Positions 4,543 to 64,000 of a stretch of DNA of 64,000 nt are shown here, piece after piece. The notes below the pieces were generated by a model, which saw only the letters and a program-made list of their open reading frames with translations, was not told the DNA's origin and did no database searches. The stretch comes from Patescibacteria group bacterium. GTDB lineage: Bacteria; Patescibacteriota; Patescibacteriia; UBA2591; UBA4787. Numbering within the stretch: position 1 is the stretch's first letter; each line of letters opens with the position of its first letter. The DNA lies in assembly GCA_028715115.1 (NCBI GenBank), contig JAQUSN010000001.1:385746-449745 (forward strand), given 5' to 3'. Both the position numbers and the translations under genes were made by a program.

Positions 4543-5616
4543 ATGAAAGGAATAGAGTTTCCCTTATTTAAAACTAAGGTAGTCGGCGTAAGTGAAAAAT
4601 TTATGCTCGAAGATCCGGCTGAACGACGTAAATATTTTCAAGCTAAGGCCGGTGCGGAAATTAATAAGATTAAAGAGTATTTGGCAAACAATACTTTTGT
4701 GGCCTTTTTGTTGGGTAAAAAAAATTCTGGTAAAGGTACTTATTCAAAATTATTCATTGAAGCCGTTGGTTCTGATCGGGTGGCTCATTTATCGGTCGGA
4801 GATATTGTTCGCAGCGCCGACCAAGCCCTTCGTGATGAAAAAAGCAAACAAGAGTTGACGGAATACTTAAAGAAAAATTATCGCGGTTTTATTACCGTTG
4901 AAGAAGTGGTAGAGAGAATCTTGGGCCGTTCGACGTCTGGGCTTTTGCCAACCGAAGCGATTTTGGCACTTATTGAGCGCGAGATTGATCATTTAGGGCG
5001 CAAGGCAGTCTTTATTGATGGCTTTCCTCGTAATCTTGATCAGATTTCTTATTCAATATTTTTTAGAACATTAATGGGCTATCGAGATGATCCTGACTTT
5101 TTCGTTTTCATCGATTTGCCCGAATCGGTCATCGACGAGAGATTAAAATATCGCGTCATTTGCCCGAAGTGCAAAACGCCGCGCAACATTAAATTATTAC
5201 GTACTAAAAATATCGGTTATGATGTTGGGAATAATAGTTTTTATTTAATGTGTGATAATCCTAATTGCGGTGGTGTGCGCATGGTTCCGAAAGAAGGAGA
5301 CGAGCTTGGTATCGAAGCTATTCGTGACCGCATGGAAATCGACGATAAGGTTATGAGAATGTTGACCGACTTACAGGGCGTACCGAAGGTTTATCTTCGC
5401 AATTCCATTCCGGTCGATGAAGCAAAAAACTACGTCGACGATTATGAAATCACTCCAGCTTATCGTTTCGAGTGCGATAAGGCCAGTGGCGGCGTAAAAG
5501 TAATAGAAGAGCCATGGACAACCAAAGACGATAATGGAAAATTGTCTTATAGCTTATTGCCTGCGCCGGTAGCCGTGGCTATGATTAAACAAATAGTTCA
5601 AGTCCTGGGATTATAA
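4543..5616 (+). CDS. Extended adenylate-kinase-family paralog with zinc-LID (about 358 aa)
   Basis: P-loop GKKNSGKGT, LSVGDIVR (AMP-binding STGDhhR-like), DGFPRN, and LID CPKC...x...CDNPNC. It has about 70-aa N-terminal and about 80-aa C-terminal extensions. The track ORF starts at 4498 and overlaps comEC, so the Met at 4543 is preferred. Confidence 0.65.
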   Translation: MKGIEFPLFKTKVVGVSEKFMLEDPAERRKYFQAKAGAEINKIKEYLANNTFVAFLLGKKNSGKGTYSKLFIEAVGSDRVAHLSVGDIVRSADQALRDEKSKQELTEYLKKNYRGFITVEEVVERILGRSTSGLLPTEAILALIEREIDHLGRKAVFIDGFPRNLDQISYSIFFRTLMGYRDDPDFFVFIDLPESVIDERLKYRVICPKCKTPRNIKLLRTKNIGYDVGNNSFYLMCDNPNCGGVRMVPKEGDELGIEAIRDRMEIDDKVMRMLTDLQGVPKVYLRNSIPVDEAKNYVDDYEITPAYRFECDKASGGVKVIEEPWTTKDDNGKLSYSLLPAPVAVAMIKQIVQVLGL

Positions 5617-7646: not shown

Positions 7647-8022
7647 AATTATCGCCTAATATTTAGTTAATAATGCTAATCTTAAAAATTATTATGCTAA
7701 CCCGCCTGCCAAAGCCACCCTTTGGAAAAATGGGTGGTTTATTAAATAAATTTGAAAATATTAGAACTTAAAATTTATTGCAGATTGGCAATTGGCGGGG
7801 CAGGTCTACAGATTGCTAATAAGCTAGATTCGTGATTCGCATTATTAGCATAAGCAAGTGGATTAGCATTTTATATTTTATGCCAGGCAGTAGAAGTTTG
7901 ATAGTACCTTGGTTTCGCACTACTCGGACTAATCTATTTTAAAATCATTTAAATTATTTATTTCTTAATTTGCGCCCTTAAAATCGCACTAATTAAGAAG
8001 CATTAAGCTTTCGCTATTCGGT

Positions 8023-8442
8023 ATGCCGACAATTCATCAACTTATTAAAAAGCAACGCAGAAGTTTACGTTCAAAGTCTAAGGCCCCGGCTTTTCAGACG
8101 ACTTTTAACGTTTTACGACGTAAGAGATTCCAGTTGGCCAGCGGTCGTCCTTTTTTGCGCGGTGTTTGTCTTAAGGTTACGACCATGACACCGAAAAAAC
8201 CGAATTCGGCTCTGCGAAAAATCGCCCGTGTCAGATTGTCAAATGGCATGGAAGTTACTGCTTATATTCCCGGTATCGGTCATAATTTACAAGAACACTC
8301 TATTGTCATGTTGCGCGGTGGCAGAGTAAAAGACTTGCCCGGCGTGCGCTATCATGTGGTTCGTGGAGTTTACGATACAAGTGGCGTCGAAGGTAGAAAG
8401 CAGGCGAGAAGTTTGTATGGCGCCAAGCGAGGCAAAAAATAA
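8023..8442 (+). CDS. rpsL: 30S ribosomal protein S12 (with N-terminal insertion)
   Basis: PTIHQL...[16 protein letters not shown]...[14 protein letters not shown]. Confidence 0.95.
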
Positions 8443-8472
8443 AACAATTTTAAAATAATTAATAATTTTTGC

Positions 8473-8952
8473 ATGCGAGGTCATCCACACATTGCCAGAA
8501 AAAAAATTCATCCCGATTCAAAATATAATAACGACAAGATCGCCAAATTTATAAATTATTTAATGGAGCGCGGCAAAAAAGTAGCAGCGCAAAAAATAGT
8601 TTATGGCGCCTTGGATATTATTAAAGAGAAGACCAAGCAAGATCCAGTTAAAATTTTTGAAAAAGCTATCACTAATATTTCGCCGATCGTCGAGGTTAAG
8701 CCCCGCCGAATCGGAGGTGCTAATTATCAGGTGCCATTTCCAGTACCCGAAAATCGCCAATTTACCTTGGCTTCCCGCTGGTTGATTAATGCGGCCGGCA
8801 ATAAAAAGGGCAGGCCAATGGCTCAGAAATTAGCCGAAGAGCTTTTGGCCGCTTTAGATAATCAAGGCGACGCTATTAAAAAGAAAGAAGATATGCATCG
8901 CATGGCTGAATCTAATCGCGCTTTTGCTCACTTTGCCCGTTTTACGCGCTAA
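8473..8952 (+). CDS. rpsG: 30S ribosomal protein S7
   Basis: Gene order rpsL-rpsG-fusA; KFINYLMERGKK...IVEVKPRRIGGANYQVP. Confidence 0.95.
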   Translation: MRGHPHIARKKIHPDSKYNNDKIAKFINYLMERGKKVAAQKIVYGALDIIKEKTKQDPVKIFEKAITNISPIVEVKPRRIGGANYQVPFPVPENRQFTLASRWLINAAGNKKGRPMAQKLAEELLAALDNQGDAIKKKEDMHRMAESNRAFAHFARFTR

Positions 8953-8980
8953 TCTTAATCTCTAAATTTATTATCCTAAA

Positions 8981-11071
8981 ATGCCCAGACAATATCCTTT
9001 AGAAAAAACTCGCAATATCGGCATTATTGCTCACATCGATGCCGGCAAAACAACCGTTAGCGAGCGCATTCTTTTTTATACCGGCAAAAAGCACAAAATA
9101 GGCGAGGTCCACTATGGCGAAGCCGAGATGGACTGGATGCCGCAAGAAAAAGAAAGAGGCATTACCATTACTGCTGCAGCCACGACTTGTTTTTGGACTA
9201 CGTCGGATGGTAATCAGTGCCGAATCAATATTATTGATACACCCGGGCACATTGACTTTACTGCTGAAGTACAGCGATCGCTACGCGTCCTTGATGGCGG
9301 CGTGGTAGTTTTTGACGGTGTGGCCGGAGTGGAACCGCAATCAGAAACAGTTTTTCATCAAGCCGAAAAATTTAGAGTGCCACTCATCGCTTTCATCAAT
9401 AAGATGGATCGTTTGGGTGCCAATTTTTATAATGACTTAAATTCTATTCACGAACGATTAACTCCCAATGCTCATCCGTTGCAGTTACCGATAGGCGCGG
9501 AAGCAGACTTTAAGGGAGTTATTGATTTATTTAAAAGAAAAGCTTATTTATATTTAGATGATTTAGGCAAAGAAATGAAAGAAGGAGACGTGCCGGCTGA
9601 TATGAAAGAAAAAGTTGAAGAGTTTCGCCACAAATTAATCGAAGCTATTGTCGAGCAAGACGATACTTTAATGCACCAATATTTAGAGGGCACTGAACCG
9701 TCGATTGCTGATTTAAAAAAAGTTTTGCGACAAGCTGTTATTACTAATAAAATCATGCCGGTTTTAGTTGGTAGCGCTTTAAAAAATAAAGGCGTCCAAT
9801 TATTATTGGACGGAGTTTGCGATTATTTACCATCTCCGGTTGACATTGCTCCAGCAGAAGGAACCGATCCGGACAGCGGCGAAAAGCTTACTCGCAAGCC
9901 CAGCGACGACGAACCGTTTTCCGCTTTAGCTTTTAAGGTTGCCACTGATCCATTCGTTGGTAAATTATGTTATTTTAGAGTTTACTCCGGTCATTTAGAA
10001 TCCGGTTCTTATGTTTTTAATACTAAGTCCGGCGAAAAAGAAAGAGTAGGCCGTATCGTGCAAATGCATGCTAATCACAGAGCTGAGATACAAGATGTTT
10101 ACGCCGGAGATATTGCCGCTATCGTTGGCTTGAAGTCAACCAGCACTGGCGATACACTTTGCGACCCCGACCATCCAATAGTTTTAGAATCTTTAACCTT
10201 TCCAGAGCCGGTTATTCATATGGCCGTTGAGCCAAAAACTAAAGTTGACCAAGAAAAGTTAGGTATGTCTTTGGCTAAATTAATGGAAGAAGACCCGACT
10301 TTTAGGGTTAGAACCGATGAAGAAACGGGCCAAACTATTATTGCCGGTATGGGCGAATTACATTTGGATATTATTATTGATCGTTTAAAAAGAGAATTTA
10401 AAGTAGAAGCCAACATTGGCAAGCCGCAAGTCGCTTATAAAGAAGCGATTACTAGGCCGATTGAGATCGAAGGAAAATATGTTCATCAATCCGGCGGTCG
10501 CGGGCAATATGGTCACTGCTGGTTAAGACTAACGCCGCGTGAAAGAGGCAAGGGATTTGAATTCTTGGATGAAATTAAAGGCGGCACTATTCCTCGCGAA
10601 TATGTTCCGGCGGTAAAGAAGGGTGTGGAAGAGGCGATGTCTAATGGCGTTATTGCTGGTTATCCTTTAGTTGATATGGAGGTCGCCGTTTACGATGGTT
10701 CATATCACGAAGTTGACTCTTCGGAAATGGCTTTCAAAATCGCCGCACAGCGCGCTATTAAAGATGGTGTGCAGCAAGCTGGTCCTGTTTTGCTCGAACC
10801 GGTCATGAAGATAGAAGTTGTCGTGCCTGATCAATTCATGGGAGAAGTTATTGGTGACTTAAATTCTCGCCGAGCGCAAATAAATGAAACTCGCACTCGT
10901 GGACAAGTAAAATTAATAGATGCTTTTGTTCCGCTGGCTGAGATGTTCGGCTACGCCACGATTTTAAGATCGGTTACCGAAGGCCGTGGCTCATATTCCA
11001 TGGAATTTTCTCATTACAATGAAGTGCCGAGAAATGTTCAGGAAAAAATCATTGGCGACAAGAAAATTTAG
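8981..11071 (+). CDS. fusA: Elongation factor G
   Basis: [17 protein letters not shown] and NKMDR GTPase motifs; 696 aa. Confidence 0.97.
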
Positions 11072-11106
11072 AGATATTAGTTATTAACAATTAAATAACA
11101 TCAGCA

Positions 11107-11134
11107 TTGACAATTAATTTTTATTGTGTATAAT
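11107..11134 (+). promoter_or_regulatory. Internal promoter for tuf (TTGACA-16-TGnTATAAT) with an AAAGAGG RBS
   Basis: TTGACA at 11107-11112 and an extended -10 TGTATAAT at 11127-11134. Confidence 0.55.
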
Positions 11135-11226
11135 TTTAGGATTATTTTACATTTAATTTACTAACAAAAATTTAATCAAGACAATCGAAATATCAAGGAT
11201 GTTTCGAAAGTAAAAAGAGGTTATTT

Positions 11227-12432
11227 ATGGCAGAAAAAGCTAAATTTAATCGTAGTAAAACCCACGTTAACGTTGGTACTATTGGCCACGTTGACCACGG
11301 TAAAACTACTTTGACAGCTGCGATTTTAAAATGTTTAGGCGCGGCCGGTAAGGTTGCCGACCAGAAAGGCGTTGACCAAATTGATAATGCCCCAGAAGAA
11401 AAGGAAAGAGGTATTACTATTAATTTGGCTCACGTTGAGTATGAATCGGAAAAACGACACTATGCTCACATTGATTGTCCCGGCCATGCTGACTATATTA
11501 AGAACATGATTACTGGTGCGGCCCAGATGGACGGCACGATTTTGGTCGTGTCTGCTCCAGACGGTCCAATGCCTCAGACCAGAGAGCACATTATTTTGGC
11601 TCGTCAGGTCGGTGTGCCAGCTATCGTCGTTTTCTTAAATAAGGTTGATATGGTTGAAGATAAAGAATTGTTGGACTTAGTTAAAGAAGAAGTCCGCGAT
11701 TTGTTAAAAAAATATGAATTCCCTGGCGACGAAATACCGATCATCGAGGGCTCAGCTCTTAAAGCTTTGGAGTGCGGTTGCGGCAAAGCTGACTGCAAGT
11801 GGTGTGGTCCGATTTTGAAATTAATCGAGGCCTTAGATAGCTATGTTCCAGAGCCAAAGAGAGATACCGATAAACCGTTTATTATGCCTATCGAAGACAT
11901 TTTCTCCATCGAAGGCAGAGGCACAGTGGTTACCGGTAAAATCGAACGAGGTATTATTAAGGTAAACGAAGAAGTTGAGATCGTCGGCTTAAAACCAACG
12001 ACCAAAACTGTCGTTACTGGCATTGAAATGTTTAGAAAGACCCTTGATGAAGGTCAAGCGGGCGACAATGCCGGTATCTTATTGCGCGGTACCAAGAAAG
12101 AAGATATTGAACGGGGTCAGGTTATTGCCAAGCCCGGTTCTATCACTCCTCACACCGATTTTGAAAGTCAAATTTACGTTCTTTCAAAAGAGGAAGGCGG
12201 CCGTCACACCCCATTCTTTAATGGTTACAAGCCGCAGTTTTATATCAGAACTACTGATGTAACCGGCGACGTGACCTTGCCGCAAGGAACTGAAATGGCT
12301 ATGCCTGGTGATACTTTAAACGTCAATATTAAATTAATTAAACCAATCGCCCTTGAAGAGAAACAGAAATTCGCTATTCGTGAAGGTGGCAAGACGGTTG
12401 GCGCAGGTGTGGTCACTAAAATTAATAAGTAG
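11227..12432 (+). CDS. tuf: Elongation factor Tu with a Cys4 insertion ([13 protein letters not shown]) in domain 1
   Basis: [17 protein letters not shown] and NKVD motifs; a CxC..CxxC insertion at the position where E. coli has GDAEWEAK. Confidence 0.97.
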
Positions 12433-12439
12433 TTTTGAT

Positions 12440-12495
12440 TGCTATCTCTGCCATTCGTCATTCGCCAACCGGCGAAGGCGAAGGTGGATTGCTAA
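12440..12495. repeat. GC-rich TTCGCC/GGCGAA hairpin element downstream of tuf (terminator-like)
   Basis: CCATTCGTCATTCGCCAACCGGCGAAGGCGAAGGTGG imperfect palindrome. Confidence 0.4.
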
Positions 12496-12533
12496 AGATT
12501 TTTATTCTTTAGCTACCTAAGCTCGCTCTTTTT

Positions 12534-12905
12534 ATGGTTAACGAAGAAAAGACCAAAAAGAAAATCCAGATAGTTCAACCCACTAAAGAGGCTAATTATA
12601 AGCCGAGGATTCGCATTAAAGTAAAATCGTATGACCACAGGGTTATTGATGAAGCCATAAAAAATATTGTGGAAACAATAAAACGATCAGGAGCGAGCGT
12701 AGTTGGACCAATACCTTTGCCAACGGAAATAAGAAAATATACAGTATTGCGTTCGACTTTCGTCCATAAAGATTCACGCGATCAATTCGAAACCAGAGTT
12801 CACAAGCGTTTAATAGATATCGTTGACTTTACTCCAAAGACAATCGAACTCATCACGAGCTTGAATTTGCCTGCTGGAGTCGACATCGAGATTAAATCTC
12901 TATAA
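12534..12905 (+). CDS. rpsJ: 30S ribosomal protein S10
   Basis: [17 protein letters not shown]...[13 protein letters not shown]; the true start may be internal to the listed ORF. Confidence 0.9.
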
Positions 12906-13073
12906 CCTTATAATATAGTTCTTAACCAATGCGCTGGTGAAGATGATAGTTATAATTTCGGTTCGCCGAAGAATGTAGCTATCGTATCACTATGCCGAGA
13001 GGTTATTTGTAGGTCAGAAAAATTTAAGATTTAGATTCGACTTGTTCGAAAGTGATTTGTTAATCTAAATAAT

Positions 13074-13106
13074 AAAAATCTGGCCTAAAAACCAGATTTT
13101 TGTTTA
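13074..13106 (+). terminator. Rho-independent terminator in the unusual 208-nt rpsJ-rplC spacer
   Basis: AAATCTGGCC-TAAAAA-CCAGATTT plus TTTGTTT. Confidence 0.5.
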
Positions 13107-13113
13107 TTATAAT

Positions 13114-13704
13114 ATGGCCTTTTTACTAGGTAAAAAAATTGGTTTAACGCAGATTTTTAGAAACGATGAAGTCGTTCCGGTTACTATACTTCAAGCCGGG
13201 CCGTGTTATGTTTTACAGATAAAGAACAAAGAAAAAGACGGTTATGAGGCGATTCAGATTGGTTATCAGAAGATTACTAAAGCCAAAAGAATCACCAAAG
13301 CAATGAAAGGCAAAGAATATCGCTTTATTAAGGAATTTAAACCGCAAGGAGTAGAATATAAGGTGGGCGATGAAATTAAAGTTGATATTTTCAAAACAGA
13401 TCAAAAAATAAATATTAGCGGAATAACCAAGGGCCATGGATTCACGGGCGTAGTTGCTCGCCATGGCTTTCATGGTCATAATACGACTCACGGTACCAAA
13501 GATCAAGAAAGAATGCCCGGTTCAATCGGTTCAACTGCAGCTCAGCGCGTCCTCAAGGGCAGACGCATGGCTGGACGCATGGGCGCCGAGAGAGCAACAA
13601 TTAAAAATTTACAAATTATCGAAATTCAGCCTGACAAAAATTTATTGCTAGTTAAAGGCGCCGTGCCGGGAGCTAATCATGGCCTTATTGAAATTAAAGC
13701 TTAA
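13114..13704 (+). CDS. rplC: 50S ribosomal protein L3
   Basis: GxTKGHGFTGVVARHGF motif. Confidence 0.95.
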   Translation: MAFLLGKKIGLTQIFRNDEVVPVTILQAGPCYVLQIKNKEKDGYEAIQIGYQKITKAKRITKAMKGKEYRFIKEFKPQGVEYKVGDEIKVDIFKTDQKINISGITKGHGFTGVVARHGFHGHNTTHGTKDQERMPGSIGSTAAQRVLKGRRMAGRMGAERATIKNLQIIEIQPDKNLLLVKGAVPGANHGLIEIKA

Positions 13705-56018: not shown

Positions 56019-57218
56019 ATGTCTAAACGTCGATTTAAAAAAGCAAAAAAACAGATTAGGCCAAAACACAAAAAAAGACTTAAAATGGCCAATCATATAA
56101 TAATACATAAGCCTTCGGTAGTTGCGAAGCGTCAGCCTTTAGTTTGGCCGGAGAAAGAAGCCGACCGGCTTATTGCTAAAGGCAGGCAGCTTGGTTTTGT
56201 GACTGAAAACGAAATTTTATATAATTTGCCGAATATTGAAAAATATCTGGAGAAATACGAAGAATTTTTAAATAGACTGGATAAAGCCGGTGTGACCATT
56301 AAGGAATCGCAGGTCGGGCTCCTGGAGCTCAAGCCGAAAGAAAAAAAAGAATCTAAGATGGACGAGATTATGTTTGATTTATCTCACCTGTCAGAAGATT
56401 CGATTCAGATGTATCTTAAAGAAATAGGCAAGGTGCCGCTTCTAACTCCGGAAGAAGAAGTGGAATTATCCAAAAAAAAAGACATGGGCGATAAAGAGTC
56501 GATGCAAAAATTGATTGAAGCGAACCTACGTTTAGTCGTCAGCATTGCCAAAAAATTCATCGGTTACGGATTGTCGTTCTTGGATTTAATTCAGGAGGGC
56601 AATATGGGTTTATTTAGGGCCGTGGAAAAATTTGACTGGAAAAAAGGATATAAATTTTCAACTTATGCCACTTGGTGGATTAAGCAAGCCGTGACCCGTG
56701 CTTTAGCCGATCAGTCGCGTACTATCCGCATTCCGGTGCATATGGTCGAATCAATCAATAAGTTCCAGCAAGCGCGACGTTGGCTGACCCAGCAATTAGG
56801 TCGGGAAGTGACGGCCGAAGAAGTGGCTGCGGAAACCGGCGAGGTAGCGGAAAATATTCGTCATATTATGGAAATTTCGCAGGACATTGTTTCGCTTGAA
56901 ACTACGGTCGGTGGCGACGAAGACAGAGACACGGAGCTGGGCGATTTAATCGAAGATTTAAAGACTATCAGTCCGGAAAGAGTGGCGGCGGTCAAGATTT
57001 TGCGCGACTATATGAAAGAAATTGTCAAAGATTTGCCGAATCGGGAAAAGAGAATTCTTGAGGTCCGTTTTGGTTTGGCCGATGGCGTAACGCATACGCT
57101 CGAAGAAGTGGGCCGCGAATATAATGTCACTCGCGAACGCATTCGCCAAATCGAAGCCAAGGCCATCGAACGCTTACGTGAGATGAAGGGCATTGAAAAA
57201 ATCAAAGATTATTTCTAA
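56019..57218 (+). CDS. rpoD: RNA polymerase sigma factor RpoD
   Basis: Region 2.4 [13 protein letters not shown], region 4.2 [21 protein letters not shown]. Confidence 0.95.
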
Positions 57219-57280
57219 GACCTGGTAAAAATTTTAAAATAGTATATAATAATTCATCGGTAAACTTGCAGCGCTCCGGG

Positions 57281-57322
57281 GTAGCTCTCCGCCAGCTGGC
57301 GGAGGTGGAGCGACTATTTTTT
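57281..57322 (+). pseudogene. Partial duplicate of the tRNA-Asn 5' region (acceptor plus D-stem) with the D-loop replaced by the palindrome TCCGCCAGCTGGCGGA
   Basis: TCCGGGGTAGCTC-TCCGCCAGCTGGCGGA-GGTGGAGCGACT versus the genuine TCCGGGGTAGCTC-AAT-GGTGGAGCGACT at 57584. Confidence 0.5.
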
Positions 57323-57338
57323 AGGTAAGCGTGATCAT

Positions 57339-57593
57339 ATGAGCTATTTTGTTTACGCTATCTATAACAAAGACCACAAAAAGATTTATATCGGTCAAAC
57401 AGATGATATAAAGAATAGATTATTATTACATAACGATCATCTATTTAAGAAAAGTTATACATCTAGATTTGATGGTGATTGGTCCCTTATATATAAGGAG
57501 AAAATAGAAAATAGGCAGGAAGCCTTAATAAGGGAAAAGGAACTAAAAAGTTATCGTGGCAGACAATTTATAAAACAATATATTCCGGGGTAG
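57339..57593 (+). CDS. Stand-alone GIY-YIG nuclease-domain protein (84 aa); its stop codon lies inside the tRNA-Asn acceptor stem
   Basis: YFVYAIYNKDHKKIYIGQTDDIKNRLLLHN (GIY...YIG), R and E of the catalytic core (RQEALIREKE). Confidence 0.75.
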   Translation: MSYFVYAIYNKDHKKIYIGQTDDIKNRLLLHNDHLFKKSYTSRFDGDWSLIYKEKIENRQEALIREKELKSYRGRQFIKQYIPG

Positions 57594-57658
57594 CTCAATG
57601 GTGGAGCGACTGACTGTTAATCAGTAGGTTGTGGGTTCGAGTCCCACCCCCGGAGCCA
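57584..57658 (+). tRNA. tRNA-Asn (anticodon GTT); CCA encoded
   Basis: TCCGGGG-TA-GCTC-AATGGTG-GAGC-G-ACTGA-CTGTTAA-TCAGT-AGGTT-GTGGG-TTCGAGT-CCCAC-CCCCGGA-G-CCA. Confidence 0.9.
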
Positions 57659-59236
57659 CATGGGATTTGCCGAGTTAAAAGCTCGGCTTTTCTCTTTATT
57701 AGAGCCCGTTTCGGCAGGTTCTAACCGTCCGTTTTTTCGATTCGACCCGGATGAGACAAGAATCAGCGGCAGAAGCGCGGAATCCGTGTCAATTCTTATG
57801 TTTTTGTCTTTTAGGAGGAGGTTCGAACCTAAGGCGGAGAGAATCACTTTTCTGGCGTGTTGACCCCTTTCGGTGAACGCTTCATTGGCATCACCGGCGA
57901 AGGTTAAAACGTTGTCGGCCGTCTGAAGCCAGCTGTCTACGCGGCTGTCGGTGTCATTCAATAATTCGTGCAGTCTGATTTTTTCCTGGCCGATTTCCGA
58001 TTTCTTTTTCTTGAATTCTTCCTCGCTTATTTCTCCCGACGCTCTCATGTCGATCAAAGCGTCCAGTTTTTTGACGCAGGCTTCGTAATTTTTTTGTTGG
58101 TTGGAAAGTATCGCGTTGCGATCGCCGGCCTCGCGCTCGTTTTCGTTTAGGAGCCATTTCATGGCCCAGCCGTGGAATTCTTCCGGCGGTTGAACTTTGG
58201 CCAATGTTTTCTTAATCTGTTTTTCCAATTCGTTCACTTCGATGCACTTTTGGCTGCACGGGCCTTTGCGTTTGGTGCAGTGATAATACGTGTAGTGATG
58301 AACGTTGCCGTTTTTGTTTCTCTTTATTTTATTCTCGGCCGTAACCATGCAACCGCACTCGCCGCAACGGATCATGCCGGTATACGCGAAGGTATGCGTT
58401 TCCGGTTTGGGCTTGCTCCCATGTCCGAGCATTTTCTGAACCCTGTCATATTCGTCGCGCGTGATCATGGGTTCGTGTTTGCCTTTGTGCCAGTTGCCAC
58501 TGCCTTTTGGCCACTCAAACCAGCCGTAATAAAAGGGATTATAAAGCAGGCGGTAGTAGCCGCTACGCGCCAGGTTTTTCAGTCCCCATTTTTCAACCGC
58601 GATTTCGTGCACCCTGGGAGCGGTGAAGTCGCCGCTTAAAAGCATATCAAACATTTTCCGGATAATCGGAAACATTCGCGGGTCTTTGCGGATCGTGCGA
58701 AAGCCTTTTAATTTGTCCGGCGTGTTTTTGTAACCGACGGGCGCCGGCCCGGGATGCCAGCCCATTTCTACTTTGCGTCTTAGTCCGCGTTTGACGTCAA
58801 TGCCTTTATTGTCGTTTTCCAGCTTAGCCTGACTGCAAAGCAGATTAAGCAGGAATTTGTCGTTGGGAGTGTTTTTGAACGTCTGGCCGGGTGTATGGAT
58901 TTCCAACAGCCGGTTCTGGTCCATGAGATAAACCAGATAGCCGGTGTCCACGGAATTTCGGGAAAGGCGGTTGGGATGCCAGGCGATAATGCCCTCGGCT
59001 TCGCCTTTCTCAATCCGTTTGATCATCTGATTGAAGATTTCGCGTCCCGGCGCTTTGGCCGAATATGATTCTTCCAGGCGCTCCACGATGTGGAGCCGTT
59101 CTCTTTTTGCAAGCGCTTCCAGCTCGCTCTTTTGCGAATCGATTGAAAGGACCTGTCTGTCTTCTTGTTCCGAAGATTTACGAGCGTAGAGGAAGTACTT
59201 GAGTTTTGGTTGTACTTCCTGGTTCATATTAGTCAA
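57617..59236 (-). CDS. Large serine recombinase (integrase) whose 3' end overlaps the tRNA-Asn 3' half
   Basis: N-terminal resolvase catalytic domain YARKSSEQEDRQVLSIDSQ, recombinase domain, zinc ribbon CGECGC...HHYTYYHCTKRKGPCSQKC; GC-rich coding sequence. Confidence 0.85.
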   Translation of the reverse strand: MTNMNQEVQPKLKYFLYARKSSEQEDRQVLSIDSQKSELEALAKRERLHIVERLEESYSAKAPGREIFNQMIKRIEKGEAEGIIAWHPNRLSRNSVDTGYLVYLMDQNRLLEIHTPGQTFKNTPNDKFLLNLLCSQAKLENDNKGIDVKRGLRRKVEMGWHPGPAPVGYKNTPDKLKGFRTIRKDPRMFPIIRKMFDMLLSGDFTAPRVHEIAVEKWGLKNLARSGYYRLLYNPFYYGWFEWPKGSGNWHKGKHEPMITRDEYDRVQKMLGHGSKPKPETHTFAYTGMIRCGECGCMVTAENKIKRNKNGNVHHYTYYHCTKRKGPCSQKCIEVNELEKQIKKTLAKVQPPEEFHGWAMKWLLNENEREAGDRNAILSNQQKNYEACVKKLDALIDMRASGEISEEEFKKKKSEIGQEKIRLHELLNDTDSRVDSWLQTADNVLTFAGDANEAFTERGQHARKVILSALGSNLLLKDKNIRIDTDSALLPLILVSSGSNRKNGRLEPAETGSNKEKSRAFNSANPMWLRGWDSNPQPTD

Positions 59237-60101
59237 AGAGTTCGGTGGTGTTCAGGTAGTAAACCAATTTGCCACCGGCCGACATTATTATTCTCATGGT
59301 CGGATAAGGGAATGGATCAGCCACAAGTCCTTCCGGAAGTTTGTAGCTTGTATCCTCCCAGCGCCACTCATTGGCCGCCGGATTTTCCGCGCCGGGTTTG
59401 CTCGGAAGGTATTGCGGCTGGATGTCGGATCGCATCATGAATTTGGTGCGTTCCGGATCACGGCCGAGATAAGCGAACGCAGCCTGCTCGATTTCGTCTT
59501 TACTCATCAAAGGCCAGTCCAGCGATCCGTTGCCGGAGCAATTGCCCGGGATGGTGGCGTTGCGTTCGATCGGATAGACAATTCCGATTTCCACAACTTG
59601 GTTCGTCTTTTGCGTTACCTGATATTGATATACTTCACAGCGGTCGTTGATGTAATTTGTCTGCTGGAAGATATACACTGGCCGGTCCCATTCCTCGGGA
59701 TTGTCGGCCGTGAACCCGCCGTCATTTTTTTTGACGTTGCTTAGGATCGCGAAATTGGCCGGATGCTCGTTTTGCGTGATGTATTTGAGCTCCAAATTCT
59801 GATCTCCCATGAACGTCTGGATGGCTCGTTCGGCTTTATCCGGTTCGCTTTGAGCCGGCGGTTTTTCATTGACGAAAGTCCGGCCGTCGGAGGTTCTGCA
59901 TTGTTCCGGATAAGATTCCATTACGGCGAATCCAGCTTCGACACACTGGTCGAAGTTCGTAATGGAGGCCAGGTCTTTAGTTTCGGCCCCACGCGGTGCA
60001 TTGCTGCCTAAAAGGTGATAAACTCCGTAACCGGCCCCAAGAACCGCTACAATGGCGATTACAGCGTAAATTTTGGCGTTTTTAGTCATAGTTTTGTTCA
60101 T
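59229..60101 (-). CDS. Hypothetical secreted/membrane-anchored protein of the integrated island
   Basis: N-terminal signal/TM MTKNAKIYAVIAIVAVLGAGYGVYHLL; higher GC than the host genome. Confidence 0.5.
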   Translation of the reverse strand: MNKTMTKNAKIYAVIAIVAVLGAGYGVYHLLGSNAPRGAETKDLASITNFDQCVEAGFAVMESYPEQCRTSDGRTFVNEKPPAQSEPDKAERAIQTFMGDQNLELKYITQNEHPANFAILSNVKKNDGGFTADNPEEWDRPVYIFQQTNYINDRCEVYQYQVTQKTNQVVEIGIVYPIERNATIPGNCSGNGSLDWPLMSKDEIEQAAFAYLGRDPERTKFMMRSDIQPQYLPSKPGAENPAANEWRWEDTSYKLPEGLVADPFPYPTMRIIMSAGGKLVYYLNTTELFD

Positions 60102-60224
60102 TAATTATTTTAATTTTGTTTTCGGCCTTTCTACACACAACATGGTCCTAAGGCCGAAGGAAGTCAAACGTATACTTCTATTTTACCGCTTTATCGGTTT
60201 TTTAATAAGAGGTAGGGTTGAAAT

Positions 60225-60440
60225 TCTATACCGATTTTGTACCGATTTTATCCGGTTATAACCCCGAAAGCTGCCCCAGTTTTGCCCCAGTTTTGCCCCA
60301 GTCTGTTTTTCTCGAAAATCATCCAAGTTTTGTCCAAGTTTTATCCAACCTAATACCTGTTTTTTGGTCGCCTTTGGTCGCCATCGTTATCTCTCAAATC
60401 TGCCCACATTTCACCCACGTTTTGCCCAACCCTTATTTTT
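60225..60440. repeat. Iteron-like array: at least 8 direct copies of an 11-nt unit (AGTTTTGCCCC / AGTTTTGTCCA / AGTTTTATCCA / GATTTTGTACC / CGTTTTGCCCA) plus tandem TTGGTCGCC
   Basis: Units have 11-nt periodicity and lie in the island's intergenic region, upstream of the minus-strand gene that starts at 60101. Confidence 0.5.
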
Positions 60441-60521
60441 TAATTTTCAGCAAGCTTGCTTGCTTTATTTAAGCTATTTTATTAATTATTTTTTCTTACT
60501 CATTCTTTATTACTAAGTGCT

Positions 60522-60965
60522 TCATGGTGGACCAGGGCCGGGGTTCTCTATGGTGCCTGACCGTGCTTCATAGTGAACCCTGGTCGTTTTTAGCAATCGT
60601 GGATTGAGACGATACATCGTGCCGGCCCAGCGGCCGCGATCAAGTACTCCCGGTTTTGTTTCTATAAGTCCGAGCTCGGCCAGTTTTTTCCTGACGCGCC
60701 GGCAGGTAGACCGGCTGAAACCGAATGAAGCGAAACCCTTCTCTTTGTCGTCCCGGCCGAAGAAGATATTATCGGTATGCCAGAACCAGCCGTCCTTATC
60801 GCCGTAGCGGTTTGAGAGATGACTCAGCACCATTAAAAAATCACGCTCGGCATGACTTAAAGCATGGCGCAATTTTTCATCGTCAAAGGGAGCGTGAGGG
60901 GCCGGAAAGAAATTAAAGCTTTTACCACGCGGTTTGAGTTGGTTCGTCTGATTCATAATTTTCAC
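60522..60965 (-). CDS. Hypothetical winged-HTH protein (replication-initiator/regulator-like)
   Basis: FGFSRSTCRRVRKKLAELGLIE HTH-like segment; adjacent to the iteron array. Confidence 0.45.
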   Translation of the reverse strand: MKIMNQTNQLKPRGKSFNFFPAPHAPFDDEKLRHALSHAERDFLMVLSHLSNRYGDKDGWFWHTDNIFFGRDDKEKGFASFGFSRSTCRRVRKKLAELGLIETKPGVLDRGRWAGTMYRLNPRLLKTTRVHYEARSGTIENPGPGPP

Positions 60966-61233
60966 TAAGTAATTCGGCTACTTTTTCACTGACGGCCGTT
61001 TCGACCTCCTGGCCGGCTTTTTGGGTTATGGGATGAAAGATGTTGATGTTCTGTCCTCCCACTTTGCGCGTGGGGTAAACCAGGCGGTATCGGCCATCCG
61101 GCCGGCTAAACACGGCCACCGATCCCATCCAAAACTTATCGTCCAGGACAAACGAAACGAACCCGAGGAGGCCGTCCTTGGGTTTGACCGGATAGAATTG
61201 AATTTCACTGATTGTGGTTTGGTTGTAAGTCAT
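60922..61233 (-). CDS. SpoVG-family nucleic-acid-binding protein
   Basis: ISEIQFYPVKPKDGLLGFVSFVLDDKFWMGSVAVFSRPDGRYRLVYPTRK...IFHPITQKAGQEVETAV parallels the SpoVG core ([23 protein letters not shown]...LFVAMPSKR...IAHPI). Confidence 0.6.
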   Translation of the reverse strand: MTYNQTTISEIQFYPVKPKDGLLGFVSFVLDDKFWMGSVAVFSRPDGRYRLVYPTRKVGGQNINIFHPITQKAGQEVETAVSEKVAELLSENYESDEPTQTAW

Positions 61234-61408
61234 GGCTGGTCACTACTTTATCTTTGAAGTCGTCGATGGACGGCTCACCCATGTAGGTGATTTTGTAGAG
61301 TTTGAAAAGATTGTTGGCGCGCAAAGACGCCTCCTCGTCGGAAAGCTTCACGCCGTAGCGTTTTTCGTATAATTCTTTGAATTCTTGTATGGCTTCTTGG
61401 GGCAACAT
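61205..61408 (-). CDS. Small hypothetical protein (67 aa), first gene of the leftward island operon
   Basis: ORF only; overlaps the next gene by 29 nt. Confidence 0.35.
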   Translation of the reverse strand: MLPQEAIQEFKELYEKRYGVKLSDEEASLRANNLFKLYKITYMGEPSIDDFKDKVVTSHDLQPNHNQ

Positions 61409-61519
61409 AAAAGGCTGGCCCCGCCGGGGACTAGCCTTTATCTATCAATTCAAATACTTTTTCGGATCACATCGAGGCGCCTTAGCCTCAGAGGGAAATA
61501 AATTTTGCTTAAAAAATAA

Positions 61520-61760
61520 AAAGGGCTACCACTTCTAGTCATCAAGCGAAAATAGCAATCGCTGCTTGATAACAGAAGTCGTAGCCCCGTCTCGTTTAGT
61601 TCCGATTGATCGGAACGCCGTCAGGCGAACTCCTATCTGACATCTTTATAATACCGGTCCGGAACGCGGACCGTCAACAGGTCCGTCTGTGGAAAACTTT
61701 TCTGACAAAAGCTGACAAGAAGTTTAAAAACACTTCTCCACAGGCCAGGGTATTTACTGC
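61520..61760. other. GC-rich, hairpin-dense non-coding region (candidate structured RNA or att/regulatory region)
   Basis: Nested perfect helices: GGGCTAC..TTCT..ATCAAGC...GCTTGAT..AGAA..GTAGCCC, GTTCCGAT-TGA-TCGGAAC, CGCC-GTCA-GGCG, GGTCCG-GAACG-CGGACC, and CTGTGGAG...CTCCACAG. Confidence 0.35.
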
Positions 61761-61787
61761 ACATTTTTAATACGCTATAATAAAATT

Positions 61788-62900
61788 GTGCAAAACAATA
61801 TGAACTCAAAAAAAGACTTAATTTTTGAGCTGGCCGAACTCGGACTGAAGGGAAACAAAGCGGCAATCGTTAAACTTCTAGAAACTATTGCCGTAAAAGA
61901 AATAGGAGCTAATCGACACTCTGCCTATAATAAATTTTTAAATCTCATCGAGAAATATTCTGATGAGACATTTTCGATTTCTCCAAGCTCTATTATTCCA
62001 CAAAAAGACGCTGAACTTTTCATCGATACAAAAAATATTTGGCTGGCTCCCAGTATTGAATCTAAAATAAATAAATTTATTAAATTACATCAAGAAATAG
62101 CAGTACCACAGATTGCGAATCAATTTAATAAATTACTTCTTTACGGTCCCCCTGGCAGCGGTAAAACTACTATAGGTTTTTATGTTGCAAACAAACTCAA
62201 AAAACCTTTAAGTTATGTAAAAATAACGGATGTAATTTCTTCAAGACTTGGTGAGACGATGCATAATATCGCAGATGTTTTTAATCGTACGGATAATGCT
62301 GTGATTTTTATTGATGAATTTGATGCTTTTGCTAAAAATCGTAATGACAAAAATGATGTCGGGGAGTTAAAGAGGATCGTGAACTCCATTATTCAAACTC
62401 TTGATTTTAATTCCAGAAATAAAATTATCATAGTTGCTACCAATTTATTAGAATCTATTGATCCGGCAATTTTAAGAAGGTTTAAATTTAAAATTCTTGT
62501 AGATGAGTTAATTGATGGGGAGAAGGAAAGATTTTTTGATTACTTAATTGAAAAAAATAAAACAAAAAATAGCAAAGTTAATATTGCTGATAATGATAAA
62601 AAATTTTTAATCGATTCTTTAGATGCACTAAAAATAAATACTATTGATGAAATAAATGACTTTTTTGACAAGACATTGGTAAATAACTTAATTGAAAACA
62701 AAAAAGAATTTGAATTGACTGATTTTGTAAAAACGCTATTCATCGAAGATTATCTTAAACAACCAAAGAAACTCAGGAAACAGGACCAAAAAATCCTTTC
62801 GAAACTTTGTAAAATAATGGAAGATGAAGGATACCCAAAAATAAAATTAGCCGAGATAATGGGCATCCATAGGAATTCATATAAGAATTATGCCGAATAA
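61788..62900 (+). CDS. Classic-clade AAA+ ATPase with a roughly 110-aa N-terminal domain
   Basis: Walker A LLLYGPPGSGKTT, Walker B VIFIDEFDAF, second region of homology VATNLLESIDPAILRRF. Confidence 0.85.
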   Translation: MQNNMNSKKDLIFELAELGLKGNKAAIVKLLETIAVKEIGANRHSAYNKFLNLIEKYSDETFSISPSSIIPQKDAELFIDTKNIWLAPSIESKINKFIKLHQEIAVPQIANQFNKLLLYGPPGSGKTTIGFYVANKLKKPLSYVKITDVISSRLGETMHNIADVFNRTDNAVIFIDEFDAFAKNRNDKNDVGELKRIVNSIIQTLDFNSRNKIIIVATNLLESIDPAILRRFKFKILVDELIDGEKERFFDYLIEKNKTKNSKVNIADNDKKFLIDSLDALKINTIDEINDFFDKTLVNNLIENKKEFELTDFVKTLFIEDYLKQPKKLRKQDQKILSKLCKIMEDEGYPKIKLAEIMGIHRNSYKNYAE

Positions 62901-64000
62901 AAAATATAAACACATAAAGATACCGAACTCCCTTTTTTCAAGGGAGGGTGTTTATACTCCACCACCGCGTAGAAATTACAAAGAGCTTGGAAATTTTGAT
63001 AGAGAAAGACAGAAGAGGAAGGTTTTGAGCGGAGTCAGTAGGATAAATAATTTTTTTTCCGAAAAGGATGCTTCTTTAAAGATTGATGCAGATAAACAGA
63101 TAAATGAGATAAAAATCAAATTTCATGGGCCCGCTAACCAGGATTTCATTTCACGATATAGGATTCAGGTTTATCGACAAGAAGAAAATAAAGAAAAAGA
63201 TTCAACAATTTTTGGGAGAATCAATAATAAGCCCATCGGTAGTCAAAAATCAGATTTTGAGCGTTTGAAGGATGAAGTAAACGCTTACGTAGAGAGAACG
63301 GAGAGAAAATCATATTTTGAAAAAATTAAAGAATTAAAGCCTCTTACTCTTGAAGAAATTTTGGAGAAAGATTTAAAAGATAAATATAAAACTGACCCCA
63401 GTCAGGAGATTTTTATTGATGTTTCTTTTGCTGATAAACAAAACATCGCAACAACAAAACTAAACTCTATCCAGGAACAATTTTCGAATAAATTTATTTC
63501 TAAAGTTAATACTGAACTTTTACACTTCTGTAGATTAAAAGCAAAATACGAAGACGTAGAAAATTTACATAAAAGTTACGAAGGCATTATTGATATTGAA
63601 CAAGCCCCGGATTATGAACTTTTTGGATCATCATTAGAAAAAAATATCGATAATCTAAATATCGTACCTCCTACAGATGACGGGGACCCTGCTTTTGTTC
63701 TTGACGGGGCCGTTAACTCAAATCACCTCACACTTAATGGAGCAGTAGTCCAATCTGTGGGACCTCATGGTGGTGACAAAAAACACGGGACCGCAGTGGC
63801 CAGTTTAGTGGTTTGCGGTTATCGCTTGGATATACAAGGCAATATTCAGCAGGATAATAAAATTATTGTCGTTGATGTTTCCGATGGCCAAAATAATTTT
63901 TTAAAACTTGAAGAAAAAATCATAGAAACAGTTGAGCAGAATGCGCCAAATTATAGACTTTTATTGTTAAATCTATCGATAAATAATTACTATTTCTATA
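62887..64000 (+). CDS. Protein with an unknown 270-aa N-terminal region followed by a subtilase (peptidase S8) domain; 3' end lies outside the window
   Basis: Manual translation of frame 1 from the ATG at 62887 (overlapping the AAA gene stop) stays open to the window end. It contains VLDGAVNSNH (Asp motif) and GPHGGDKKHGTAVASLV (His motif HGTxVA). Confidence 0.6.
   Translation, partial: MMPNKKYKHIKIPNSLFSREGVYTPPPRRNYKELGNFDRERQKRKVLSGVSRINNFFSEKDASLKIDADKQINEIKIKFHGPANQDFISRYRIQVYRQEENKEKDSTIFGRINNKPIGSQKSDFERLKDEVNAYVERTERKSYFEKIKELKPLTLEEILEKDLKDKYKTDPSQEIFIDVSFADKQNIATTKLNSIQEQFSNKFISKVNTELLHFCRLKAKYEDVENLHKSYEGIIDIEQAPDYELFGSSLEKNIDNLNIVPPTDDGDPAFVLDGAVNSNHLTLNGAVVQSVGPHGGDKKHGTAVASLVVCGYRLDIQGNIQQDNKIIVVDVSDGQNNFLKLEEKIIETVEQNAPNYRLLLLNLSINNYYFY

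Follow-up and report, generated by a model that had tools for sequence, protein, structure and literature searches.

A candidate IetAS-type ATPase–subtilase module in a serine-recombinase island of a Patescibacteria group bacterium

The ATPase–subtilase gene pair

We analysed a 64,000-nucleotide (nt) stretch of DNA from a Patescibacteria group bacterium (assembly GCA_028715115.1, contig JAQUSN010000001.1, positions 385,746 to 449,745; hereafter the window), at the downstream end of which lie two overlapping genes for an AAA+ ATPase and a subtilisin-like protease of family S8. Both proteins find their best profile matches in IetAS (also written IteAS), a toxin–antitoxin (TA) and anti-phage system, and we refer to the genes as ietA and ietS. 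As read from the sequence, they make up a single operon, with 11 nt of overlap between them and a sigma-70-like promoter in front. The features of the locus are listed in Table 1.

Table 1. Features of the ietAS locus and its surroundings, in window coordinates.
Feature	Position	Strand	Description
tRNA-Asn(GUU)	57584..57658	+	ARAGORN and Rfam; probable island integration site
large serine recombinase	57617..59236	-	Pfam Resolvase, Recombinase, Zn_ribbon_recom; 3' end overlaps tRNA-Asn
hairpin-dense non-coding region	61409..61750	.	between GC-rich recombinase module and ietAS cassette; not part of cassette
sigma-70-like promoter of ietAS operon	61753..61781	+	TTTACT, 17-nt spacer, TATAAT; 10/12 consensus matches
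candidate operator	61758..61792	.	inverted repeat TGCACA-N23-TGTGCA around -10 box; extended arms TGCACATTTT / AAAATTGTGCA
ietA	61800..62900	+	366-aa classic-clade AAA+ ATPase, putative antitoxin of IetAS family
ietS 5' half	62890..64000	+	residues 1-370 of about 744; subtilase (S8), putative toxin of IetAS family

The ietA open reading frame (ORF), counted from a GTG codon, spans 61788-62900 and would encode 370 amino acids (aa), the length given in an earlier, sequence-only reading of this DNA. We favour a 366-aa protein; the true start is almost certainly the ATG at 61800, because a 366-aa protein on record (P0052) is 100% identical to the ATG form, Met1 is invariant in a family alignment of 41 homologues, and the GTG at 61788 falls within an arm of the conserved candidate operator. 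The same exact-protein look-up with the 370-aa GTG form gave no match. The start of ietS, previously placed at ATG 62887 with a 14-nt overlap, is likewise shifted to the ATG at 62890; the ietA stop codon occupies 62898-62900 and the two genes share ATGCCGAATAA.

All of the ATPase motifs noted earlier are present in IetA, namely Walker A (GPPGSGKTT, residues 116-124), Walker B (IDEFDAF, 171-177), sensor 1 (VATN, 212-215) and the arginine fingers (ILRRF, 224-228). The reported subtilase Asp and His motifs also lie within the window, Asp272 in VLDGAVN (codon 63703-63705) and His299 in HGTAVAS (codon 63784-63786). The ietS frame is still open at the window end, 64000, and the gene extends to about window-equivalent position 65125. 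As remarked before, the pair is AT-rich next to a GC-rich neighbour, the GC fraction being 0.30 in ietA and 0.34 in the ietS part, compared with 0.48 in 57660-61750 and 0.38 in the remaining window.

A terminator-like hairpin followed by a T-rich run is found on the forward strand about 40 nt inside ietS (62928-62948, CTCCCTTTTTTCAAGGGAG) and could reduce expression of the toxin relative to the antitoxin. The three terminator-like sites in the region, with 1.4 expected, are not above chance.

Completion of ietS and assignment to IetAS

The missing part of ietS was taken from a 5.2-kb contig of a metagenome-assembled genome (MAG; contig L001, GCA_028713815.1) that has 2 mismatches to the window in 3949 bp. 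A second contig (L012, GCA_028686935.1) has 1 mismatch in 3934 bp. Both contain the oxyanion Asn399 and the Ser motif GTSFATP (Ser512), the catalytic serine that the sequence-only reading had proposed to confirm downstream.

The window IetA matches the IetA hidden Markov model (HMM) PDLC02196 of PADLOC with an E-value of 5.5e-57 (protein residues 12-367, model positions 7-366 of 374), at which chance can be dismissed, and three more PADLOC IetA models with E 1e-48 to 2e-23. For IetS, the window fragment matches the PADLOC model with E 8.7e-11 and the completed L001 protein with E 2e-58 (model positions 104-634 of 749), while the proteins of two relatives, L004 (9e-55) and L007 (1.5e-56), both reach model position about 725. 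The best NCBIfam matches for the pair are IteA_antiphage (NF042959) and IteS_antiphage (NF042956). Pfam recognises AAA (PF00004) in IetA (E 3.8e-27, model positions 1-130 of 131) and Peptidase_S8 in the completed IetS (E 9.6e-17).

Earlier the pair had been matched to no named system; it is now recognised as IetAS (IteAS) by two independent HMM libraries, PADLOC and NCBIfam, and the guess then made, of an ATPase–protease conflict or phage-defence module on a mobile island, agrees with this assignment. We have little doubt that the pair belongs to IetAS. By its profile scores, the pair from the Candidate Phyla Radiation (CPR) is a distant IetAS subfamily and not an equivalog of the curated NCBIfam clade.

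Predicted features of IetA and IetS

In the 41 homologues, residues K122, T123, D172, E173, N215, R226 and R227 of IetA are invariant or nearly so, and the pore loop reads RLGET at 149-153 (family consensus FGET; pattern hydrophobic-Gly-Glu-Thr). Judged by these motifs, IetA has the complete catalytic equipment of a classic-clade AAA+ protein translocase, with K122 in Walker A, D172/E173 in Walker B, N215 in sensor 1 and R226/R227 as arginine fingers. An AlphaFold2 (AF2) model of IetA, with a predicted local distance difference test score (pLDDT) of 82.6, comprises a three-helix bundle (3-53), a disordered linker (56-73), the AAA module (84-315) and three short helices at the C-terminus (330-365). 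Its best Foldseek matches are FtsH(i), proteasomal Rpt, Msp1, Cdc48/p97 and Vps4, and the best match in a PDB sequence search is the D2 domain of VCP/Cdc48 (E about 1e-33). A scan of IMG/VR with IetA found no viral relative.

In IetS, D272, H299, N399 and S512 are each at least 90% conserved in 45 homologues. The protein has no signal peptide or transmembrane segment, with a Kyte-Doolittle maximum over 19 residues of 0.88. From these features IetS is predicted to be a cytoplasmic subtilase with the full Asp272/His299/Asn399/Ser512 set.

For structure prediction we used a 744-aa homologue, P0002, which shares 95% identity with the L007 protein; the latter in turn shares 93% with the protein of the window lineage. 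The AF2 model has a pLDDT of 90 and a predicted template modelling score (pTM) of 0.91. A long N-terminal helix is followed by two tandem β-α-β-β-α-β units (about 71-151 and 174-238), the S8 domain (about 265-575), a β-sandwich (580-715) and a terminal helix. The top Foldseek match in the PDB is ProN-Tk-SP (3afg; E 7e-23 over 602 columns), and other top matches are KP-43, unprocessed pro-subtilisin E, PCSK9, furin and Kex2. The model suggests that IetS resembles an unprocessed pro-subtilase with two propeptide-like domains and a P-domain-like β-sandwich.

Set beside pro-subtilases and kexins with a C-terminal β-domain (Tk-SP 3afg, KP-43 1wmd, furin and PCSK9), the IetS model aligns over 489-690 columns, although sequence identity is only 12-16%. 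These enzymes are secreted and self-processing, whereas IetS is predicted to be cytoplasmic with a separate AAA+ partner in control; unlike them, it has two propeptide-like repeats plus an N-terminal helix. A PDB sequence search with IetS gave nothing at E ≤ 0.01 and a BFVD fold search returned generic subtilases only. No IetAS structure came up when the PDB was searched by sequence and with Foldseek, nor in the literature searched.

The promoter and a candidate operator

The -35 and -10 hexamers of the ietAS promoter are aligned at the same place in five loci (window, L007, L008, L004 and L010), and more distant loci have a -10-like hexamer between the arms of a palindrome, the candidate operator. 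The pattern TGCACA-N23-TGTGCA occurs once in the 64-kb window, and 0 of 100 shuffles contain it. In 14 of the loci fetched there is a single copy, immediately upstream of ietA; these amount to ten distinct CPR loci, window lineage included, with IetA identity down to 38%. The spacing is identical, 29 nt, in 10/10 of these distinct loci, all of which have the HRN(S/T) helix, and position 7 of the arms co-varies (TGCACAATT/AATTGTGCA, TGCACATTTT/AAAATGTGCA, TGCACAAA/TTTGTGCA).

The IetA proteins of all ten palindrome loci end in a nearly invariant motif, LG(I/V)HRN(S/T)…Y (LGIHRNSYxNY in its fuller form), and the AF2 model predicts a tri-helical structure for this C-terminus. Nine of ten IetA C-terminal fragments give matches to the helix-turn-helix (HTH) families HTH_3/19/23/8, all of them sub-threshold. 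The palindrome is absent from L019 and from the Agrobacterium plasmid locus L006, whose IetA terminal helix differs. Type II antitoxins bind palindromic operators in their own promoters. From the sequence correlations we lean, by a modest margin, towards a model in which IetA represses its own operon through the C-terminal HTH-like motif bound to the palindrome.

In L019 a different palindrome, TTATGTA-N27-TACATAA, surrounds a TATAAT box upstream of ietA (about 4920-5000), and the C-terminal helix of its IetA reads ISMRQVRN. This hints that operator and recognition helix change together, although 7-nt arms in AT-rich DNA could arise by chance.

Co-occurrence and mobility of the cassette

A word-based homologue search with the incomplete window IetS returned one protein only; the 744-aa L007 protein recovered the family, with 40 IetS clusters (34-95% identity, 741-760 aa). 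For IetA about 85 clusters were recovered (36-90% identity). Homologues with a named source belong to Ca. Paceibacterota, Yanofskybacteria and Saccharimonadales, and the identical IetA on record is annotated as from a Patescibacteria group bacterium. We inspected 12 loci directly: the window, L007, L008, L004, L010, L014-L019 and the Agrobacterium plasmid. The two genes, whose co-occurrence had been an early question, stand together in every one, ietA directly upstream of ietS with an overlap or a gap of ≤3 nt (12/12). Furthermore, for 28 of the 40 IetS clusters the longest contig is equal in size to that of an IetA cluster, which is evidence of gene linkage.

The window and L004, a Paceibacterota MAG, share the order dnaG, rpoD, tRNA-Asn, serine recombinase, ietAS. 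Their IetA and IetS proteins are 75% and 73% identical, as against 39% for DnaG and 53% for RpoD. At the DNA level the two are homologous only in the tRNA, in a fragment of the recombinase and in a block from 61751 to the ietS stop codon. The last of these implies that the mobile unit consists of the promoter, ietA and ietS. By these comparisons the ietAS cassette is horizontally mobile and patchily distributed.

A probable frameshift near the 3' end of ietS

Contigs L001 and L012 read TTACCCCCTG, with five Cs, where L007 reads TTACCCCTG, with four (window-equivalent 64902-64906). The extra C lies at L001 positions 4851-4855 and shifts the frame at codon 672, giving a 678-aa product that lacks the last 72 residues plus an overlapping 78-aa ORF. 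As read in these contigs, ietS of this strain probably has a +1 frameshift close to its 3' end, which may leave the module partly disabled with the catalytic domain unaffected. Whether the toxin is functional in this very strain we would put at an even chance. We see three explanations for the extra C: an inactivating mutation that arose very recently, an error common to both assemblies and, least likely, +1 recoding at CCC_C.

A competitor to a working module, to which we give somewhat less than an even chance, is that the locus is a decaying remnant in this strain, in which the +1 insertion inactivated the toxin and ietA persists only transiently. The five Cs stand in two separately assembled MAG contigs. 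The lost segment holds three β-strands of the β-sandwich, the terminal helix and the conserved W686 and Q705, and all other relatives have an intact IetS (741-782 aa). On the other hand, the window stops before the frameshift site and shows its own ietS only to residue 370. Moreover, the 78-aa ORF matches L004 residues 672-743 at 74% identity and is thus as conserved as the rest of IetS (73%). As the gene is otherwise undamaged and its catalytic domain entire, the change is very recent, harmless, bypassed or a shared assembly error. Decay of this copy would in any case touch the activity of the pair and not its identity.

UAC-CCC-CUG is a classic +1 slippery context. It is conceivable, though very improbable, that ietS of this lineage is recoded and not broken, such that the P-site tRNA-Pro slips +1 at CCC_C and low, stress-sensitive amounts of full-length toxin are made, on top of autorepression by the IetA HTH-like motif through the operator. 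If true, this would add a translational fuse to an IetAS with an autorepressing AAA+ antitoxin.

The surrounding island

Seven loci have a large serine recombinase no more than about 5 kb from ietAS: the window, L007, L004 (where it is truncated), L010, L014, L016 and L018. The C-terminal tail of the window recombinase ORF (...WDSNPQPTD) is read through tRNA-Asn, and the junction is identical in L004, whose 282-aa recombinase lacks the catalytic N-terminal half. No att-type direct repeats of the tRNA-Asn 3' end were found in 57400-64000, as expected because the enzyme is a serine recombinase. An 82-aa ORF with a GIY-YIG nuclease domain (57330-57575, forward strand; Pfam E 6.5e-15) lies between rpoD and tRNA-Asn.

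What follows ietS is seen in related contigs. L007, a metagenome contig collinear with window positions 57623-64000 at 85% identity and with an intact 744-aa ietS, continues (7791-13439) with an EcoRI-like methyltransferase and a DUF262/HNH protein (PADLOC REase_II, E 2.5e-141), and further on with a 425-aa uncharacterised protein, a Mrr-like nuclease with a Zn-ribbon and an AriA/OLD-like ATPase. In L012 (633-6098) the same type II restriction-modification (R-M) pair is followed by a 1090-aa KAP-family NTPase. Neighbours in other loci include a TIR protein (L014), an MmeI enzyme (L016) and a Vsr/Dcm/HNH set (L017), and in L018 the recombinase is accompanied by an excisionase-like HTH_17 protein and a Prim-Pol/AAA_25 replication gene. 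Read across these contigs, a variable defence-island tail lies downstream of ietS. The pair had been placed at the edge of the island; we place it inside, because the R-M pair and other defence-type genes continue downstream in L007 and L012.

Between the recombinase and ietAS, the GC-rich cargo at 59229-61408 (reverse strand) comprises four genes, for a 290-aa protein with an N-terminal hydrophobic segment and for proteins of 147, 103 and 67 aa. The 103-aa protein is SpoVG-like (Pfam E 1.8e-7), and none of the four has a PADLOC match. Contigs L001 and L012 both break off within the 5' end of the 290-aa gene, at window-equivalent 60052 and 60067. Some 200 nt further along there is a triple 11-nt repeat (GCCCCAGTTTT x3; 60267-60310), with a degenerate copy 129 nt off (60396-60439). 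The breaks and repeats may reflect population heterogeneity or an iteron-like site.

The hairpin-dense character of the 342-nt region upstream of the cassette, noted earlier, is borne out by RNA-fold z-scores of -6.9 (forward strand) and -5.4 (reverse strand) relative to shuffled controls. Its structures include a long, imperfectly paired hairpin (about 61523-61589) and a stem-loop just upstream of the 67-aa ORF. L007 and L008 have the region at about 85-90% conservation; L004 and L010, where homology starts at 61751, lack it. Rfam applied to 57000-64000 returned tRNA only, with just a chance-level snoRNA match to this region (E 0.69). As part of the GC-rich recombinase module, the region could be a non-coding RNA, a recombination site or an origin.

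Discussion

IetAS anti-phage systems were reportedly described by Gao et al. in 2020. The family first came to notice as a TA system for plasmid stability, the toxin being a serine protease and the antitoxin an ATPase, and was only later linked to phage defence (PMC13069673). The original system, on pTiC58, is attributed to Yamamoto et al. (2009) where PMC8562856 (its reference 44) and PMC13069673 refer to it. As of 2026 the mechanism of IetAS "remains unknown"; protease activity is needed, and constructs with mutated ietA could not be made (PMC13069673). That failure fits an antitoxin that is an active ATPase. A homologue from B. cereus acts by abortive infection and becomes toxic upon expression of yosG of phage SPβ (bioRxiv 10.1101/2022.08.27.505566), and Mycoplasma mycoides and JCVI-syn2.0 have a homologous AAA/subtilase TA pair (PMC8562856). 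In E. coli, ietAS co-localises non-randomly with type III R-M.

The anti-phage set of IetAS (B. cereus m1293, E. coli ECOR52) is the best HMM match of both CPR proteins, with near full-length coverage, and has the same gene order, intact catalytic sets and R-M neighbours. The SPβ yosG trigger of the Bacillus system is without a known counterpart at the CPR locus. The pTiC58 system, compared here by description, is likewise a two-gene operon on a mobile carrier with the AAA+ antitoxin upstream of a subtilisin-like toxin of roughly 750 aa; it differs in host phylum, and its carrier is a plasmid where that of the window is a chromosomal serine-recombinase island. The ATPase of an AAA/S8 pair on an Agrobacterium plasmid is 39% identical to the window IetA across the AAA module (E 5e-38) and has the motif NDVGELKR(I/V)VN in common with it. 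A tblastn search with the S8 partner of that pair did not retrieve pTiC58.

The Mycoplasma pair MMCAP2_0132/0133 (JCVISYN2_132/133), again set beside ours by description only, consists of chromosomal AAA (353 aa) and subtilase (757 aa) genes in a minimal-genome bacterium; as in the CPR pair, the antitoxin gene is upstream, there is no intergenic gap and there are signs of horizontal transfer (PMC8562856). It has been validated as a TA system and not for phage defence (PMC8562856). In ietHAS (Liu-DS4), an IetAS variant with a SNF2 helicase, the IetA and IetS core is held in common (PMC13069673). Neither the window nor any of the 11 related loci that we inspected has a helicase gene beside the pair.

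Based on these comparisons, we consider it very probable that the locus is a divergent CPR IetAS, a TA/abortive-infection module carried as cargo of a serine-recombinase island at tRNA-Asn. That the TA and abortive-infection logic of the characterised members carries over by analogy is likely. By that analogy IetS would be the toxin, dependent on its protease activity, and an ATPase-active IetA the antitoxin, and the system would act by abortive infection that a single phage protein could trigger. The C-terminal HTH-like motif of IetA would bind TGCACA-N23-TGTGCA and thereby repress its own promoter. IetS would be kept latent until the ATP-dependent hold of IetA is lost during infection, and freed IetS would then cleave cellular or phage proteins and halt growth. 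The addiction property of the pair would stabilise the island. A tentative and rather doubtful further step is that IetA neutralises IetS by ATP-driven engagement or unfolding of the propeptide-like region or of a terminus.

Several observations weigh against this interpretation. The NCBIfam scores, 164 bits for IteA (equivalog cut-off 510) and 173 bits (L001) or 160 bits (L004) for IteS (cut-off 900), are three- to five-fold under the thresholds, which is why public records say only 'AAA family ATPase' and 'S8 family peptidase'. BLASTP hardly aligns IetS with the S8 partner in the Agrobacterium plasmid pair (E 0.006), and the function of the CPR pair is transferred by homology alone. The link between candidate operator and repressor is correlative, and the IetA C-terminus has no HTH match at the Pfam gathering score. 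The propeptide-like reading of IetS is based on predicted topology and whole-model Foldseek matches, and Pfam assigns its N-terminal 265 aa to no family, Inhibitor_I9 included. Lastly, with the frameshift at codon 672 the toxin may be non-functional here.

The pair might instead be a pure addiction module that keeps the island by post-segregational killing, as IetAS does for pTiC58, with no anti-phage role. The description of the first IetAS as a plasmid-stability TA system, as cited in PMC13069673 and PMC8562856 (reference 44), is in keeping with this, as are the large serine recombinases near the pair in seven loci with enough flank. At L018, in particular, the pair sits beside a recombinase, an excisionase-like HTH_17 gene and Prim-Pol/AAA_25, a combination typical of an integrative element. 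We nevertheless regard a purely addictive role as unlikely, given that the neighbours are overwhelmingly defence genes (R-M, Mrr, AriA-like ATPase, TIR, MmeI and KAP NTPase) and that other IetAS members protect against phages experimentally; the addiction and defence roles are, moreover, not mutually exclusive.

A housekeeping unfoldase–protease, either a split AAA+ protease or a chaperone dedicated to maturing a secreted subtilase, would suit the pore loop and fold that IetA has in common with substrate-threading AAA+ machines and the likeness of IetS to pro-subtilases that require a folding or activation step, but we reject it as exceedingly improbable, since IetS has no signal peptide or transmembrane segment, the cassette is patchy, horizontally transferred, more AT-rich than the DNA around it and located within defence islands, and both HMM libraries give IetAS and no housekeeping family. 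The dedicated processing pair entertained by the sequence-only reading is disfavoured on the same grounds, the cassette being mobile, patchy and set among restriction and defence genes.

With the divergent IetAS module as our preferred interpretation, the find itself is ordinary in that a system already named is now extended to Patescibacteria. Three details may be new: the palindrome with its HTH-like motif, the pro-subtilase-like IetS and the +1 frameshift in two assemblies. The locus is also a concrete case, from ultra-small symbiotic bacteria, of a defence island that carries a serine recombinase and lies at a tRNA gene. With about 40-85 diverged clusters and a high-confidence IetS model, the CPR subfamily offers a lead on the mechanism of IetAS, and the sharply defined pair of candidate operator and HTH-like motif predicts autorepression by an AAA+ antitoxin in a form that is directly testable.

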